Shown here: in pieces, positions 4,002-55,550 of the stretch
Layout of the letters: each line of letters opens with the position of its first letter
Numbering within the stretch: position 1 is the first letter of the stretch
DNA from: Thiohalomonadales bacterium
GTDB lineage: Bacteria; Pseudomonadota; Gammaproteobacteria; RBG-16-57-12
NCBI GenBank assembly: GCA_050295955.1
Contig: JBNKQQ010000076.1
Coordinates: forward strand, 18,255-82,254
Direction of reading: 5' to 3'
DNA length: 64,000 bases
Position numbers and translations under genes: made by a program
The notes under the pieces: generated by a model
Told to the model about the DNA's origin: nothing
Databases searched by the model: none
The model's input: the letters and a program-made list of their open reading frames with translations, nothing else

Positions 4002-6017
4002 ATGTGTGGAATCGCAGGCGTTATACACGCCGACCCGGCACGCCCGGTCGACCCTCAAACCCTGGTCAACATGGCCGCCATCCAATATCACCGTGGCCCC
4101 GATGGTTTCGGAATCAAGACCATGAATGACCGTGGCATTGGTTTTGCCCATGCTCGTCTTTCCATTATTGATCTGAATGAGCAACGGGGCAGGCAGCCCT
4201 TTATGCATCACGATGGTAATTTGATGCTGACGCAAAATGGTGAGCTCTATGATTACAAACGTATCCGTGCGGATCTCACTACGCGAGGAGCTCGCTTCCA
4301 AAGTAAGAGTGACTCGGAACTGGTGCTACACCTCTATGAACACTATGGCCTGGAAGAGACCCTGAAAAACTGCCGAGGTGAGTTTGCCTTTGCCCTCTAC
4401 GATAAGCAGAACGATCGCCTGATGTTGGTGCGGGATCGCTTCGGCATCAAGCCCCTCTACTGGACCCAGCATAACGGCACCCTGGTATTTGGCTCTGAGC
4501 TGAAGGTGTTGTTTGCCCATCCCGAGGTGCCCCGCCAATTTAGTGCTGAAGGGGTTTATCACCAATTGATGCAGACCATTGTACCGGGTACTACCGCTTT
4601 TGACGGGGTGTACCAGGTGAAGCCGGGCCATGTGATGATCATCCAGCGGGATGGTAAAGGAGGCTTTGAGATCGAAGATCGCAAATATTGGGATATGGAT
4701 TTTCCCAAGCTGGGGGAGCGGGACGAATCCCAGCCTGAAGAGCACTACATTGAAGCGGTACGGGAGAAGTTGTTGGAGGCGGTACAACTGCGCCTAGAAG
4801 CGGATGTGCCGGTGGCCTGCTATCTCTCTGGCGGGATCGACTCTTGTTCTACGTTGGGGATGGCAGCGGCCAGTCAGCAATCTTTGGTGAAGGCATTCAC
4901 TATCGGCTTTGATGATGCGGACTATGACGAGAGTGTGATTGCTGCTGAGATGGCCGATAGTGTGGGGGCGGACCAGGATATTATGCGTCTGGATGCCAGC
5001 CACCTCTACGATAATTTAGAAGAGACCCTCTGGCACACCGAGCGCACCATCTACAACACCCTTGGGGTGGCCAAGTTATTGATGAGTCGTCATGTGAATA
5101 AAGCGGGCTATAAAGTGGTAGTTACTGGCGAAGGTTCTGATGAGCTATTCAGCGGCTATCCCGCCTTTCGTCGAGACATGTTCCTGCATGGTCTGGATAC
5201 CCTGGCTCCCGAAGAGCGTAAGGAGTGGGAAGCGCTGCTGGCAGAGAGTAATAAGCTCTTTAAAGGTGCCATGTTGGCAGAGAACGAATTGCATGACGAG
5301 GCTCTGGATGCGCTAATCGGTTTTACCCCTAGCTGTCTGCAACCCTGGTTGGCGGCGGCTGAACATGTGCCAGGCTTACTGGCCCCAGAATTACGTAAGC
5401 AGACCGAAGGCTACCAACCCGGCAAGGCCATTGCAGATGCCCTGGATGGTGAGATGCTCAAAGAGCGTCACCCACTGGATAAGGCGCAATACGTCTGGAT
5501 CAAAACCATGTTAGAGGGACAGATTCTCACTTGGGGGGGCGACCGGGTGGATATGGCAAACTCCATGGAGGCGCGTCCGCCGTTCCTGGATCATCACCTT
5601 GCCGAGCTGGCGACCCAACTGCCACCTTCATTGCGTATCAAAGGCCGCACTGAAAAGTATGTACTGCGGGAAGCGATGAAAGGACTACTCCCCAAAACCC
5701 TCTATGAGCGGGAGAAGTTTGCCTTCATGGCACCACCTGCCCATACCGATCCTAAGAAATGGCAGGCAATGAAGGCTCTGGCGGAACGTTACCTAAATGA
5801 AGAGACCATTGAACAAGCCGGTGTATTGGATGGTGCCGGTGTTGCTGCAATTTTTGATTTATATGAAGCGGAGGATACCTCTGCCTCTACCAAGGTGCAG
5901 TTGGATGCTGTTATCAACCATATGATTGGTATCCAGGTATTGCACAACCACTTTATTGCCCAGGATGTACCTGCGTTGGCACAACAACGAGCAGAAGAGT
6001 TGGAGTGGGCCGCTTAG
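4002..6017 (+). CDS. Asparagine synthetase (glutamine-hydrolysing) family amidotransferase with an extended C-terminus.
   Basis: The N-terminal MCGIAG.. carries the Ntn Cys2 nucleophile. The synthetase domain has the PP-loop CYLSGGIDSC. It is 671 aa, against about 554 aa for E. coli AsnB. Confidence 0.8.
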   Translation: MCGIAGVIHADPARPVDPQTLVNMAAIQYHRGPDGFGIKTMNDRGIGFAHARLSIIDLNEQRGRQPFMHHDGNLMLTQNGELYDYKRIRADLTTRGARFQSKSDSELVLHLYEHYGLEETLKNCRGEFAFALYDKQNDRLMLVRDRFGIKPLYWTQHNGTLVFGSELKVLFAHPEVPRQFSAEGVYHQLMQTIVPGTTAFDGVYQVKPGHVMIIQRDGKGGFEIEDRKYWDMDFPKLGERDESQPEEHYIEAVREKLLEAVQLRLEADVPVACYLSGGIDSCSTLGMAAASQQSLVKAFTIGFDDADYDESVIAAEMADSVGADQDIMRLDASHLYDNLEETLWHTERTIYNTLGVAKLLMSRHVNKAGYKVVVTGEGSDELFSGYPAFRRDMFLHGLDTLAPEERKEWEALLAESNKLFKGAMLAENELHDEALDALIGFTPSCLQPWLAAAEHVPGLLAPELRKQTEGYQPGKAIADALDGEMLKERHPLDKAQYVWIKTMLEGQILTWGGDRVDMANSMEARPPFLDHHLAELATQLPPSLRIKGRTEKYVLREAMKGLLPKTLYEREKFAFMAPPAHTDPKKWQAMKALAERYLNEETIEQAGVLDGAGVAAIFDLYEAEDTSASTKVQLDAVINHMIGIQVLHNHFIAQDVPALAQQRAEELEWAA

Positions 6018-11852: not shown

Positions 11853-12323
11853 CTAGGGTGAAACCTGAATGGTGAAACTTTGATGGCAGTTGTTGCACTG
11901 CTGCAGGGTTGAGTCTAACAGTGCCAATATTCCCTCCTGCTCTCCCGTTTCGGCTTTGGCGGCAATCTCATCAAATTTGCCATGGGCAGTAAAGCCCAGT
12001 TGGCGGAATTCCATGGGCAGCTTGGCCATTAAGGTGACAGGGGTGCCGGTCTCATTATGGGTACCGGCAACCTGGGCAGCCGTGACCACTTGAGTCAAGT
12101 CTCCTACGGCAAGGCCTTGAGTAATCTGTTGTAAGCTGCTGAGAAAAGTACGCATGCCGTTACGGATGTGTGCCGCTTCTGTGGCTGTCACCGTGATGGC
12201 TTGGCGCCCATCTTCTGCTTGGGTGGTATCGTTGCCTATCAGGAATTTGTAGATCAGTCCTGCCAGGATGACAGAGAGCAGAATGGTGAGAATCTGGTAG
12301 GTACGGGCGTGGAGTGGTTTCAT
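11853..12323 (-). CDS. Membrane-anchored cytochrome c' (class II cytochrome c / cytochrome b562 family).
   Basis: N-terminal signal-anchor helix. A single CNNCH haem motif about 10 residues from the C-terminus, as in four-helix-bundle cytochromes c'. Confidence 0.5.
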   Translation of the reverse strand: MKPLHARTYQILTILLSVILAGLIYKFLIGNDTTQAEDGRQAITVTATEAAHIRNGMRTFLSSLQQITQGLAVGDLTQVVTAAQVAGTHNETGTPVTLMAKLPMEFRQLGFTAHGKFDEIAAKAETGEQEGILALLDSTLQQCNNCHQSFTIQVSP

Positions 12324-12398
12324 GTTACTTATAGGTTCCGGTCAATTGATATTTGGCGCCTTGCGAGGGGGCTAAATGGAGATAGCCCCCTTTGGCTC

Positions 12399-12530
12399 GA
12401 ATGCTGTTCAGTTAACAAGAAAATTGCTGTCATGCCGGGCTTGCCCCGGTATCCATGCCTATTTGTGAGCACATCAGCATGGATCCTGAATCAAGTTCAG
12501 GATGACGCAACACTTAACTGAACAGCATTG
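12399..12530. mobile_element. MITE-like miniature inverted-repeat element (non-autonomous).
   Basis: 16-bp perfect terminal inverted repeats, AATGCTGTTCAGTTAA (12400-12415) and TTAACTGAACAGCATT (12514-12529). They are flanked by an 11-bp direct repeat CCCTTTGGCTC (12388-12398 and 12531-12541), a candidate target-site duplication. The interior carries extra hairpins and no ORF. Confidence 0.4.
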
Positions 12531-12547
12531 CCCTTTGGCTCTACTGT

Positions 12548-14581
12548 TTAGGCGGTGATACCACTGTGTCTTAGCAGCGCATCAATACTGGGTTCACGGC
12601 CACGGAACTCGATAAACAGTTCCATAGGCTCTTTGGATCCTCCCTGCTCCAGGATGGCACTGAGGAAGCGCTCGCCGGTTTCAGGGTCAAAGATACCGTT
12701 TTCTTCAAACAGTGAGAAGGCATCAGAAGAGAGTACCTCTGCCCATTTGTAGCTGTAGTAGCCTGCCGCATAGCCACCGGCAAAGATATGGCTGAAGCTA
12801 TGGGGGAAGCGGTTGAAGCTGGGGGGATTGAGTACCGCTACCTGTTGGCGTACCTCGTCCAGCAGGCCGTAGATGTTGGCCTCACCCTCTGGGTCGTACT
12901 CTTTGTGCAGGCGGAAGTCGAACAAGGCGAACTCTAGCTGTCGCACCATCTGCATACCGGACTGGAAATTCTTGGCGGCAATCATCTTGTCGAACAACTC
13001 GTCAGGGATTTTCTCACCGGTCTGGTAGTGGGCCGCGAACAGATCCAGTGCCTCGCGCTGCCAGCACCAGTTTTCCAGGAACTGGCTGGGCAGTTCTACT
13101 GCATCCCAGGCCACCCCTGAGATACCCGCTACTGAGGGGTAGTCCACCTGGGTGAGCATGTGGTGGATGCCATGACCGAATTCATGGAATAGGGTCTGCA
13201 CCTCGTCGTGGGTGAGCAGTGCCGGACTGTTACCCACTGGCGGGGTGAAGTTACACACCAGATAGGCGACTGGGTGCTGCACGCCATCTTTGTGATTGCG
13301 ACGACAGATACAGTCATCCATCCAGGCGCCGCCGCGTTTTTGCGAGCGGGCATAGGGGTCGAGATAGAACTGGCCACGCAGCTGCCCGTTGGCATCATGG
13401 ATCTTGAAGAACAAGACATCTGGATGCCAGGTGTCTACACCCTCTACCGGTGTGACTTTCATACCAAATAGGCGCTGAACTGTCTCAAACATTCCAGAAA
13501 TAACGCGATTGGCGGGGAAATAGGGTTTTAAATCCTCTTGAGAGATGGCGTATTGGTGCTGGCGAAGCTTCTCTCCCCAATAGGTGATGTCCCACGCTTC
13601 AAGCGTTTCCTGATAACCACTCTGCTGGGCAAAGGCGCGGACCTCCTCCAGCTCTTTCTTGGCCATGGGCAGGGAGCGCTTTGCCAGATCTTCCAGAAAG
13701 CCGATGACTTGATTGGTATCACTGGCCATCTTGGTGGCCAGGGAATATTCGGCATAGTTGGCAAAGCCTAGCAGCTGGGCCATTTCATGGCGTAGAGAGA
13801 GAATCTGCTCCATAAGGGGACCGTTATCCCACTTACCGGCATTCGGGCCTTCATCCGAGGCACGGGTGACATAGGCGGTATACATCTCACGACGCAGTTC
13901 ACGATCATCTGCATAGGTCATTACCGGTAGGTAATAGGGGAATTCCAGCTTGAATAGCCAGCCCTCGACCCCTGCTTGTTCCGCAGCCTGCTTGGCGAGA
14001 CCCAGGGCACTTTCCGGCAGGCCGGCAAGACGGGATTTATCGGTGATGTTGAGGCTCCAACCGTCAGTGGCATCCAGCAGGTTCTGGCTGAACTCAGTGG
14101 TGAGTTGAGAGAGGGCTTGCACAATGGATTTGTAACGTTCCTGGTCTTCAGGACTCAGATCAATACCGGAGAGACGGAAGTCACGTAGCGTGTTTTCCAC
14201 AATCTTGCGCTGGGCTGTGTTGAGCAGTGAAGACTTGGACTCCAGCTGTTTGAAGGCGGCACAGAGCTGAGGATTTTGAGCCACTTCGGTGTTATAGGCA
14301 GAGAGTTTTGGCAGACAGGCGCTGTAGGCTTGGTGAAGGGCTTCTGAGTTAACCACTGAGTGCATATGACCGATTGGCGACCAAGCGCGGGAGAGGTGGT
14401 CATCCAGCTCTTCCAGGGGCTGGGCCAGATTTTCCCAGGTGTATTCACTATTGTTATCCAGAAGTTGATGGATGGTTGCTCTGGCTTCTGAAAGCAGTTG
14501 GTCGATGGCTGGTTCGATATGCTCGGGTTGGATTTGTGAGAAGGGAGGAAGGCCCTTCATCGTTAGAATAGGGTTATTCAT
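12548..14581 (-). CDS. prlC: Oligopeptidase A (M3 family).
   Basis: 677 aa, with an HEFGHGIHH zinc motif and M3A-family architecture. The length matches PrlC. Confidence 0.9.
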   Translation of the reverse strand: MNNPILTMKGLPPFSQIQPEHIEPAIDQLLSEARATIHQLLDNNSEYTWENLAQPLEELDDHLSRAWSPIGHMHSVVNSEALHQAYSACLPKLSAYNTEVAQNPQLCAAFKQLESKSSLLNTAQRKIVENTLRDFRLSGIDLSPEDQERYKSIVQALSQLTTEFSQNLLDATDGWSLNITDKSRLAGLPESALGLAKQAAEQAGVEGWLFKLEFPYYLPVMTYADDRELRREMYTAYVTRASDEGPNAGKWDNGPLMEQILSLRHEMAQLLGFANYAEYSLATKMASDTNQVIGFLEDLAKRSLPMAKKELEEVRAFAQQSGYQETLEAWDITYWGEKLRQHQYAISQEDLKPYFPANRVISGMFETVQRLFGMKVTPVEGVDTWHPDVLFFKIHDANGQLRGQFYLDPYARSQKRGGAWMDDCICRRNHKDGVQHPVAYLVCNFTPPVGNSPALLTHDEVQTLFHEFGHGIHHMLTQVDYPSVAGISGVAWDAVELPSQFLENWCWQREALDLFAAHYQTGEKIPDELFDKMIAAKNFQSGMQMVRQLEFALFDFRLHKEYDPEGEANIYGLLDEVRQQVAVLNPPSFNRFPHSFSHIFAGGYAAGYYSYKWAEVLSSDAFSLFEENGIFDPETGERFLSAILEQGGSKEPMELFIEFRGREPSIDALLRHSGITA

Positions 14582-19771: not shown

Positions 19772-21310
19772 CTAACGTTTTTTAGCCGCTTTTTTCTTGG
19801 TAGTTGCCCGCTTTTTAGTCGCGGATTTTTTTGCGGAGGCTTTCTTTTTCACGGAAGCCTTCTTTTTACTTGCCGCTTTCTTTCTGGTCGCACTCTTATT
19901 TTTAATGGCAGACTTTTTAATATAGGCCTTCTTCTTAGTTGCGGCTTTTTTCTTGGTCACCGCTTTCTTAGTCGCCGACTTCTTCTTAGTGGCGGCTTTT
20001 TTCTTGGTCACCGCTTTCTTCGTTGCCGACTTTTTCTTAGTGGCGGCCTTTTTCTTGGTCACCGCTTTCTTCGTTGCCGACTTTTTCTTAGTGGCGGCCT
20101 TTTTCTTGGTCACCGCTTTCTTAGTCGCGGACTTCTTCTTAGTGGCGGCTTTTTTCTTGGTCACCGCTTTCTTAGTCGCGGACTTCTTTTTAGTGGCGGC
20201 TTTTTTCTTGGTCACCGCTTTCTTAGTCGCGGACTTCTTTTTAGTGGCGGCTTTTTTCTTGGTCACCGCTTTCTTAGTCGCGGACTTCTTCTTAGTGGCG
20301 GCTTTTTTCTTGGTCACCGCTTTCTTAGTCGCGGACTTCTTTTTAGTGGCGGCTTTTTTCTTGGTCACCGTTTTCTTCGTTGCCGACTTCTTCTTAGTGG
20401 CGGCTTTTTTCTTGGTTGCCGCTTTCTTCGTTGCCGACTTCTTCTTAGTGGCCGCCTTTTTCTTAGTTGCCGCTTTCTTAGTCACGGACTTCTTCTTAGT
20501 GGCGGCTTTCTTTTTAGTCGCCGCTTTTTTCTTAACGGCGCGCTTCTCGACAGGCTCTTCCTCAGTAACCGTTTCTTCAACCTGCGCTGCAGGTTCCTCA
20601 GTCGTTGTTTCTGACTCTAGAGGTAGAGGCAGGGATTGAGGCTCATTTTCTGGCTCTTCTTTTCCCAGGGAGTCAATGACATGACAAACACGGTTGAAGA
20701 TATCTTCAATCTCACCAATACCTTCGATGCGTTGCAGAATTGCTTTGTCACTGTAGTAGTTAATTAGTGGGCTGGTTTGCTCTTCGTATACCTTAAGGCG
20801 GCTGCCGATGGTCTCTTCGTTGTCATCAGAGCGGTGTTGCAGTTCTCCACCACACTTATCACAAACACCCTCTTTCTCTGTGGGGGAGAAGAAGACATTG
20901 TAAACTTGGCCGCATGCCTTACAGGTACGGCGGCCGGTAATACGTTTGAGCAGTACATCAAAATCGACGTTAATCAGGATTGCACCATCAAGTGGTTGAC
21001 CAACCTTGCTTAGCAGTTGGTCTAGTGCTTCTGCCTGAGGAATATTGCGGGGGAAACCATCCAGAATATAGCCATTGTGGGTATCAGGTTGTGCGAGACG
21101 TTCCTCGATCATGCCTAGCACCACCGAGTCAGGAACCAGCTGTCCGGCATCCATGAACTCTTTGGCTTGTTTTCCGAGTTCGGTGCCGCTGGATACGGCA
21201 GCACGGAGTAGGTCGCCAGTGGAGATTTGCGGAATATTGTATTTATCGATTAGTTTCTGAGCTTGGGTACCTTTACCTGAACCCGGCGCACCTAACAGTA
21301 CGATTCTCAT
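19772..21310 (-). CDS. adk: Adenylate kinase with a Cys4 zinc LID, fused in frame to an acidic linker and a long Lys/Ala/Thr-rich histone-H1/AlgP-like repeat tail.
   Basis: [17 protein letters not shown]-loop and CKACG...CDKCGG zinc LID. I chose the start at ATG 21310, which has a GGGAGG SD 10 nt upstream. After about 222 aa of Adk there is no stop. Instead come about 40 acidic residues ([24 protein letters not shown]), then roughly a dozen repeats of [17 protein letters not shown]. Confidence 0.85.
19790..20545. repeat. 51-bp tandem-repeat array inside the adk 3' region, encoding the 17-aa K/A/T repeats.
   Basis: Near-identical units of ...TTAGTCGCGGACTTCTTTTTAGTGGCGGCTTTTTTCTTGGTCACCGCTTTC... 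repeat head to tail across about 600 bp. Copies at both edges are degenerate. Confidence 0.85.
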
Positions 21311-21454
21311 AGCGCAGTTGCCTCCCTCGGCAATATTTATCATTTTGATTATAGGAAATGTAGCGGTTAGCTATTTGAACCCCAGATTATGTCAATGAGC
21401 ACTGGTAAATTACAAGTTTTGATGGGATTAATTGAGGAAAAAAGTGCTTTTTAA

Positions 21455-55304: not shown

Positions 55305-55550
55305 CAGAGGTATTTAAGAGGCGCTCCCGCTTATGCCGTAGCAGTCTTCGACCTTGAACCATAGGTTCAAGTGGAGATCTTGACCGGCAAATTAGGCTTT
55401 CCGGCGCACGGACATGCACACATCACCGGAGGCAGATCCCGGGATTTTAAATTAGGCTCAAGAGTACCCAGAGTGCATACGAACACAGCAGGAGCGCCAA
55501 ACTGGTGTTGAATCGCTGGCAATTGTCAGCCATTCGAATTGTTCTTGTTA
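55305..55550 (-). ncRNA. ssrS: 6S RNA (ssrS). The ends are approximate, to within about 15 nt.
   Basis: The minus-strand sequence parallels E. coli 6S. Its ...TTCAACACCAGTTTGGCGCTCC... corresponds to the E. coli CAUACCACAAGAAUGUGGCGCUCC. Its central GAGCCTAATTTAAAATCC corresponds to GAGAAGCCUUAAAACUG. Its CACTTGAACCTATGGTTCAAGG corresponds to CACCUUGAACCAAGGGUUCAAGG. The 3' GGGAGCGCC is complementary to the 5' GGCGCTCC. It sits between zapA and ygfA, exactly as in enterobacteria. Confidence 0.7.

Follow-up and report, generated by a model that had tools for sequence, protein, structure and literature searches.

Bacterial MITE families such as Correia, RUP, ERIC/MITEEc1 and MITEAba12 derive from IS630, IS1 or IS5 or have no known source; MIC231 comes from the IS231 subgroup of the IS4 family. 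These elements are small, non-coding and intergenic and give highly structured RNA. Their terminal inverted repeats (TIRs) are copied from an IS family, and they are flanked by a target duplication. The element described here resembles them in all these respects but has another source IS group, other ends and another duplication length. The main text of a 2024 review of prokaryotic MITEs does not mention IS4, and full-text searches of an open-access subset of the literature found no description of the TIR sequence studied here or of IS4-derived MITEs.

REPs and REPINs are abundant, dispersed hairpins. REPIN populations are dense in genomes and, to our knowledge, HUH/RAYT-type transposition makes no target duplication. 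The present element differs from REPINs in both respects: its borders are DDE-type IS ends with an 11-bp duplication, of a kind that RAYT mobilisation does not make, and about 84 kb of host DNA contain no REP population, only two hairpin modules. It resembles the REPINs and REP doublets of Bertels and Rainey in that its interior consists of two inverted REP-like hairpins, and in that related elements of Burkholderiales and Pseudomonas contain, in the same layout, the REP sequences typical of the respective lineage.

Elements of the IS4 subgroup have ends of the form '-AATR--------WTW----', direct repeats of 10-13 bp and a size of 1400-1650 bp (De Palmenaer et al. 2008, PMC2266710, Table 1). 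Here we describe a locus in a 64-kb stretch of DNA, the whole of which is called the window. We consider it highly probable that positions 12399-12530 are a non-autonomous MITE with the ends of the IS4 subgroup of the IS4 family. The likeness to IS4 and ISAeme15 lies in the termini, N-AATGC..TCAGTTAA. Further likenesses to the subgroup are the single variable base outside the 16-mer, a target duplication within 10-13 bp and a tendency to insert in small GC-rich palindromes or hairpins. The element differs from the subgroup in its size (132 bp vs 1.4-1.65 kb) and in having neither an Nterm_IS4/DDE_Tnp_1 transposase nor any recognisable subterminal IS sequence.

Anatomy of the element

The features of the locus are collected in Table 1. 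An earlier note, made from the sequence alone, had described a 132-bp element with 16-bp TIRs and 11-bp flanking repeats; its coordinates and the perfection of the repeats were borne out. The right TIR is the exact reverse complement of the left one over all 16 bp, and on both sides of the element one G separates the direct repeat from the TIR arm. Among inverted repeats lying within 300 bp of each other, this pair is the only perfect 16-bp one in the window. No such repeat arose in 40 first-order Markov simulations of the window, which rules out a chance origin of the TIR pair. The presence and anatomy of the element are real and statistically secure.

Table 1 Features of the element, its spacer and the flanking genes (window positions)
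Feature	Position	Strand	Description
Highly probable non-autonomous MITE with IS4-subgroup ends	12399..12530	.	132 bp; no coding capacity
Left copy of the 11-bp target-site duplication	12388..12398		CCCTTTGGCTC; identical to 12531-12541
Right copy of the 11-bp target-site duplication	12531..12541		CCCTTTGGCTC; begins 6 nt past the prlC stop codon
Left terminus	12399..12415	+	G + 16-bp TIR AATGCTGTTCAGTTAA (TIR 12400-12415); fits '-AATR--------WTW'
Right terminus	12514..12530	-	16-bp TIR TTAACTGAACAGCATT (12514-12529) + terminal base; minus strand: C AATGCTGTTCAGTTAA
Left REP-like hairpin module	12429..12458	+	GTC-ATGCCGGG-cttgc-CCCGGTAT-CCATGC
Central hairpin	12453..12482	.	CCATGC...GCATGG, from the inner flanks of both modules
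Right REP-like hairpin module	12477..12506	-	GTC-ATCCTGAA-cttga-TTCAGGAT-CCATGC
Native spacer hairpin	12366..12391	.	9-bp stem, AGGGGGCTA...TAGCCCCCT
Predicted empty-site sequence (element and one repeat removed)			...AGCCCCCTTTGGCTCTACTG...
M3 oligopeptidase gene, prlC-like, upstream	12548..14581	-	Peptidase_M3 E = 3e-159; TOP_N E = 1e-22
156-aa gene, downstream	11853..12323	-	putative membrane-anchored/secreted class II c-type cytochrome-like protein; C-terminal CNNCH

The element has the characters by which MITEs are recognised: it is short (below about 500 bp) and non-coding, with TIRs and a target-site duplication. An autonomous IS has its own transposase between the ends. Here the interior measures 98 bp, and the element cannot move by itself because it lacks a transposase. 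That it carries no ORF, as had been noted, is true of the element itself. A 117-aa ORF (12168-12521, +) overlaps it, but this frame is mechanical only, antisense to the 156-aa gene and without support.

The fold of the element as single-stranded DNA has an energy of -36.9 kcal/mol (z = -8.3). Both hairpins that had been named before are present, at 12432-12452 and 12483-12503, and there is a third, central one besides.

IS4-type ends and cognate elements

The left end reads G AATG CTGTTCAG TTA and the right end, read inward, C AATG CTGTTCAG TTA. Both ends carry the IS4-subgroup signature '-AATR--------WTW----', and the perfect 11-bp direct repeat CCCTTTGGCTC lies within the 10-13 bp of the subgroup. 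In E. coli K-12 MG1655, the annotated IS4 has the ends TAATGCCAGTCAGTTAAG and TAATGCCGATCAGTTAAG and a 12-bp duplication, ATCTTGGTTCTG. Its ends share 13 of 16 positions with the TIR of the element, and those of ISAeme15-like and Pseudomonas elements share 14-16 of 16. The left terminus also aligns with the ends of IS4, of ISAeme15 and of the elements at loci L112, L125 and L127 described below.

All fetched loci were searched with InsG by tblastn, and a match was obtained in Pseudomonas sp. LS_2 (locus L112). There, an ORF with an Nterm_IS4 domain (E = 4e-27) lies about 80 nt inward of an exact copy of the 16-mer. The 107 readable residues of this ORF correspond to that domain, and the frame is broken off by the contig end. 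Two contigs of this strain (L112:1-402 and L056:1-46) end inside an IS4-family element whose terminus is the exact 16-mer. The IS of Pseudomonas sp. LS_2, probably a multi-copy one that interrupted the assembly, is the closest candidate for the cognate autonomous element.

Complete IS elements were found by a plasmid search with the transposase fragment of L112. The first, in Acinetobacter seifertii pAS74-1 (L125), measures 1422 bp, carries AATGCTGTTCACTTAA at both ends and is flanked by a 12-bp duplication, AGCTCTATACTG. The second is located in a Klebsiella plasmid (L126), where it is annotated as ISAeme15 and contains Nterm_IS4 and DDE_Tnp_1; it measures 1429 bp, has one mismatch per end and a 12-bp duplication, CGGTTCAGACCG. 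The third, in a Photobacterium plasmid (L127), measures 1430 bp, with one to two mismatches in its ends and a 12-bp duplication, TGGTCGAAACCA. In all three, the 12-bp duplication is perfect and a single base stands between the duplication and the 16-mer, as in the window element. The same ends are therefore found on elements that encode an IS4-type transposase (L112 and L126; the ends of L125 and L127 show one to two mismatches). One detail differs: the terminal bases of the window element, G...G, are non-complementary, and those of the full-length elements are C...G or T...A.

The earlier note had proposed that a transposase-mobilised miniature element had inserted here, and that a search might find an IS with matching ends. 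Both ideas are supported: the ends and the length of the duplication are those of the IS4 subgroup, the element is missing in relatives (see below), and IS4-family elements with matching ends were found in Pseudomonas, Acinetobacter, Klebsiella and Photobacterium. As judged from these termini, the cognate family is the IS4 family, IS4 subgroup, of ISAeme15-like type.

Flanking genes, spacer and comparison with relatives

The element had been placed between a cytochrome c' gene and prlC. The location between these two genes is correct but the orientation had to be revised: both genes are on the minus strand, with the prlC-like gene upstream and the 156-aa gene downstream. The domain matches make 'prlC-like' a fair name for the M3 peptidase. 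For the 156-aa protein, a cytochrome c' identity is weakly supported. It has a hydrophobic N-terminus and a C-terminal CNNCH motif. Its single Pfam match, Cytochrom_C_2 (PF01322, E = 0.0018), makes the label plausible but scores 19.6 bits against a cut-off of 26.5, which is too low for a firm label. A search of 5.8 billion clusters gave 11 homologues, a small family; they come from MAGs of uncultured Gammaproteobacteria.

The spacer from prlC to the 156-aa gene (12324-12547) measures 224 bp, of which 143 bp are the element and one repeat copy; without them, 81 bp remain. The left duplication copy ends 64 nt ahead of the start codon (ATG) of the 156-aa gene. The duplicated 11 bp do not form a palindrome, but the native hairpin at 12366-12391 overlaps its left copy by 4 nt, and the insertion struck the shoulder of this hairpin nearest to prlC.

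Two Logan contigs of SRR36185845 match the window with 100% identity. In a second assembly (JBNKOF010000032.1, GCA_050294515.1), which is 99.87% identical to the window, the element is present with one substitution. More distant relatives, namely five MAGs and their Logan counterparts, keep the synteny from the peptidase gene to the 156-aa gene, with 54-64% identity of the 156-aa protein. In their spacers, which measure 30, 69, 71 and 126 bp, nothing resembles the TIR within 3 mismatches. The comparison with relatives that had been suggested for this locus thus finds the element missing, although at 54-64% protein identity no empty site can be aligned. Since the relatives keep the gene order with a spacer of 30-126 bp and without the repeat, the element is a lineage-specific insertion; at this distance, the relatives offer neither an empty site that can be aligned nor a date. 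According to the earlier note, a single copy without any IS bearing matching ends, together with the same sequence in all relatives, would point to an ancient structured intergenic region. Instead, there are IS elements whose ends match, and the relatives lack the sequence.

The short spacers of the relatives also suggest that the prlC-like gene and the 156-aa gene are co-transcribed, probably as one transcription unit. If so, the element puts a very stable structure into the intercistronic RNA. As minus-strand RNA, the whole spacer folds at -88.3 kcal/mol (z = -6.5), with an outer stem formed by the terminal repeats and three inner hairpins. Such a fold, together with the comparable hairpins seen in this spacer in relatives (L128 and L131), might be taken to mean that the structure is native, for instance a terminator, an attenuator or a cis-regulatory RNA of the prlC operon, with the repeats as its parts. 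We find this scarcely credible. The element is missing from all relatives examined, and IS4-type transposition accounts exactly for its ends and its duplication. At the locus, Rfam gives nothing above noise, the best match being the RhlA thermometer with 19 bits against a gathering score of 85. A consensus scan found no sigma-70-like promoter and no terminator-like site on either strand of the spacer (12324-12547). The hairpins had been thought to act as the terminator of prlC. This idea finds no support because none of the stems has a U-tract behind it: on the transcribed (minus) strand, they are followed by CCAUGC, CAUGAC and CGAGCC. If the inserted element has any effect, it is likely to be on RNA structure, RNA processing, RNA stability or gene coupling, not on intrinsic termination.

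Two REP-like modules in the interior

The two modules of the interior are inverted with respect to each other. Their flanks are identical and their loops nearly so (CTTGM), and their stems differ by compensating changes. About 84 kb of host DNA contain no further module of this kind, and shuffled windows contain 0-3. The right module is 31/32 identical to a hairpin repeat found on plasmids of Sphingomonas, Sphingobium and Novosphingobium. On a Sphingomonas koreensis plasmid (L142:1390-1540), this repeat is an inverted doublet without IS4-type ends, and L143:1490-1530 is a further locus of the same repeat.

A remnant of the subterminal regions of IS4, of the ISAeme15-like elements or of the Pseudomonas IS was also considered as a source of the interior, and rejected. 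Comparison of the interior with the subterminal regions of five IS4-type elements gave nothing significant, the best match being 9 nt, GCCGGGCTT (E = 0.27).

Beta-proteobacterial elements with the same termini measure 122-174 bp and occur at several loci per genome. Their layout is the same: each TIR is followed inward by a spacer and a REP-like module, and the two modules stand in inverted orientation around the centre. The Neisseria REP/REPIN master sequence is part of their module, GTC-ATTCCCGC-gcag-GCGGGAAT-CCAG; the cargo of the Burkholderiales elements, ATTCCCGCGCAGGCGGGAAT, is this REPIN master sequence, and that of the Pseudomonas elements, GTAGGAGCGAGCTTGCTCGC, corresponds to Pseudomonas REP doublets. 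Elements with REP doublets of their own lineage were found at 14 loci (L010, L018, L021, L026, L028, L031, L043, L050, L062, L074, L075, L087, L096 and L097). On the evidence of these loci, IS4-type ends combined with a lineage-specific REP-like cargo are a recurrent design. In the open-access literature searched, we found no description of an IS4-type or DDE MITE shell with a REPIN-like cargo.

One may then ask whether the inner REP doublet is itself the mobile unit, a REPIN moved by a RAYT-type tyrosine transposase, the outer inverted repeats being incidental. The inverted arrangement with shared flanks and loop and covarying stems would agree with this, as would the near-identity of one module to sphingomonad doublets that have no IS4-type ends, and the identity of the corresponding beta-proteobacterial module with the Neisseria REPIN master sequence. 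We nevertheless regard it as very improbable. The exact 11-bp duplication lies outside the IS4-type ends and away from the modules, and it is established that HUH/RAYT-type transposition leaves no such duplication. Moreover, real IS4-family elements have the very same outer ends, and about 84 kb of host DNA contain no further module, whereas REPIN populations are dense.

Copies in the host sequence

The window contains no second copy of the element, as searched with the 16-mer (3 mismatches allowed) and by blastn-short with the interior, and about 20 kb more of the source contig contain none either. The element is thus present once in about 84 kb of host sequence. No IS4-like transposase was detected in the window (tblastn with InsG). 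A metagenome scan with a degenerate pattern over both end-plus-interior junctions gave 4 chance matches, all in AT-rich coding sequences. A Logan contig that ends inside the element was discarded as a sign of repetition, as contigs of the same sample also break at the non-repeat positions 4466 and 5033.

The single copy, the lack of an IS4-like transposase in the window, the chance matches of the junction scan and the non-complementary terminal G...G all speak against the MITE reading. The first two, and the lack of sister copies in the metagenome scan, would fit a solo relic: a full-length IS4-type element would have inserted, and its interior would later have been lost or replaced in place, leaving no sister copies. 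We hold this to be unlikely, on account of the interior, which contains no transposase-derived sequence and is unlike the subterminal regions of the five IS4-type elements (9 nt, E = 0.27). The 132-bp layout is also that of the beta-proteobacterial elements present at several loci per genome. The shared layout argues that the unit arrived ready-made, against the reading as a solo relic.

Short elements with the same ends in other bacteria

A scan of the genome collection with the 16-mer gave at least 120 loci. Many of these matches lie inside coding sequences (lepA-like, flavobacterial, Pelagibacter); they were attributed to chance or coding conservation and set aside. When up to 3 mismatches were allowed in the partner arm, at least 36 short inverted pairs of 44-481 bp, and one of 1,023 bp, were found in other genomes among the matches listed. 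Among the same matches, direct repeats of 10-14 bp (at most 1 mismatch) surround 21 of 36 short pairs, usually with one base between repeat and 16-mer as in the window element. At many non-coding loci among the matches listed, a GC-rich half hairpin lies outside the 16-mer and lineage-specific repeats lie inside. The hosts of such loci are Pseudomonas, Undibacterium, Duganella, Cupriavidus, Herbaspirillum, Zobellella and Sphingomonadaceae, as well as Acidobacteriota, Gemmatimonadota, Planctomycetota and Polyangiales.

In several genomes, near-identical miniature copies are found at different loci with different duplications. They are 96% identical between chromosomes 1 and 2 of Cupriavidus sp. 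TMH.W2, 90-97% identical at three loci of Pseudomonas sp. Irchel s3h17, 99% identical at different loci of Pseudomonas sp. 1928-m and 95% identical at different loci of Zobellella aerophila. The near-identical copies at several loci per genome show that miniature units with these ends transpose. A 42-bp minimal version is present in Pseudomonas sp. PD9R (L081:6643-6684). It consists only of the 16-nt arms (one mismatch) on either side of a 10-nt centre, and no recognisable duplication was found at this locus.

The three complete IS copies and many miniature elements are located in small palindromes, and at least 25 outer flanks in the scan resemble halves of intrinsic terminators, an A-run followed by a GC-rich arm. 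As seen at L013, L021, L050, L097, L103, L123, L126 and L127 and at about 25 single-end matches, many of the elements, and the full-length ISAeme15-like copies too, are inserted in the tops of GC-rich hairpins. These target hairpins lie between an A-run and a T-run, as intrinsic terminators do, and the duplication of 11-13 bp spans the loop and the upper stem.

Other features of the window

The gene at 19772-21343 (-) encodes an adenylate kinase (ADK E = 3e-58, ADK_lid) to which a long C-terminal tail rich in lysine is fused. About 12 tandem 17-aa units make up this tail; they correspond to a repeat at 19928-20527 with a 51-bp period and 93% matches. Overlapping alignments suggest that the length of this array differs between the window strain and GCA_050294515.1. 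A 6S (SsrS) RNA gene is present at 55320-55497 (-), with 87 bits; it is the sole Rfam family above its gathering score in the window.

Proposed origin and significance

As judged from its ends, its duplication and what is known of the IS4 family, the element was most likely mobilised in trans by a DDE transposase of the IS4 subgroup. Having bound both 17-bp termini (N + AATGCTGTTCAGTTAA), this transposase would excise the element and join it to a target cut in a staggered manner; repair of this cut would produce the 11-bp duplication CCCTTTGGCTC. The element would have landed in the short spacer of the probable unit from prlC to the 156-aa gene. Its target would have begun 6 nt beyond the stop codon of prlC, at the shoulder of the native hairpin, and the spacer would have grown from about 81 to 224 bp. 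The cargo consists of the two inverted REP-like modules, without transposase remnants, and the element is predicted to have a very stable multi-hairpin fold as DNA or RNA.

More tentatively, and with considerable doubt, the element may belong to a widespread class present in several phyla. Such a class would comprise elements of 110-280 bp with near-invariant IS4-subgroup termini and lineage-specific REP/REPIN-like doublets. They would prefer the tops of GC-rich hairpins, often intrinsic terminators. We found no description of them in the literature searched. If the class is real, it would link DDE-type IS4 transposases with REP-type hairpin repeats, and the window element would be a chimeric unit put together in another lineage that arrived by horizontal transfer. 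Horizontal arrival would be implied by the 31/32 likeness to the sphingomonad plasmid repeat and by the lack of any other copy in about 84 kb.

For the host genome this is a small matter, a fairly ordinary insertion of mobile DNA. It nevertheless places 143 bp of strongly structured sequence within a probable two-gene unit and could alter mRNA processing or the coupling of the two genes. An otherwise anonymous intergenic palindrome can now be tied to a specific group of transposases. The wider pattern is the more interesting lead: the same 16-17-bp termini delimit many short elements in Pseudomonas, Burkholderiales, Sphingomonadaceae, Acidobacteriota, Gemmatimonadota and others, often with a REP-like cargo and often within terminator hairpins. 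If this pattern is uncatalogued, it would provide a useful rule for the annotation of intergenic repeats, and it offers a lead on the interplay of REP-like hairpins and DDE transposons.
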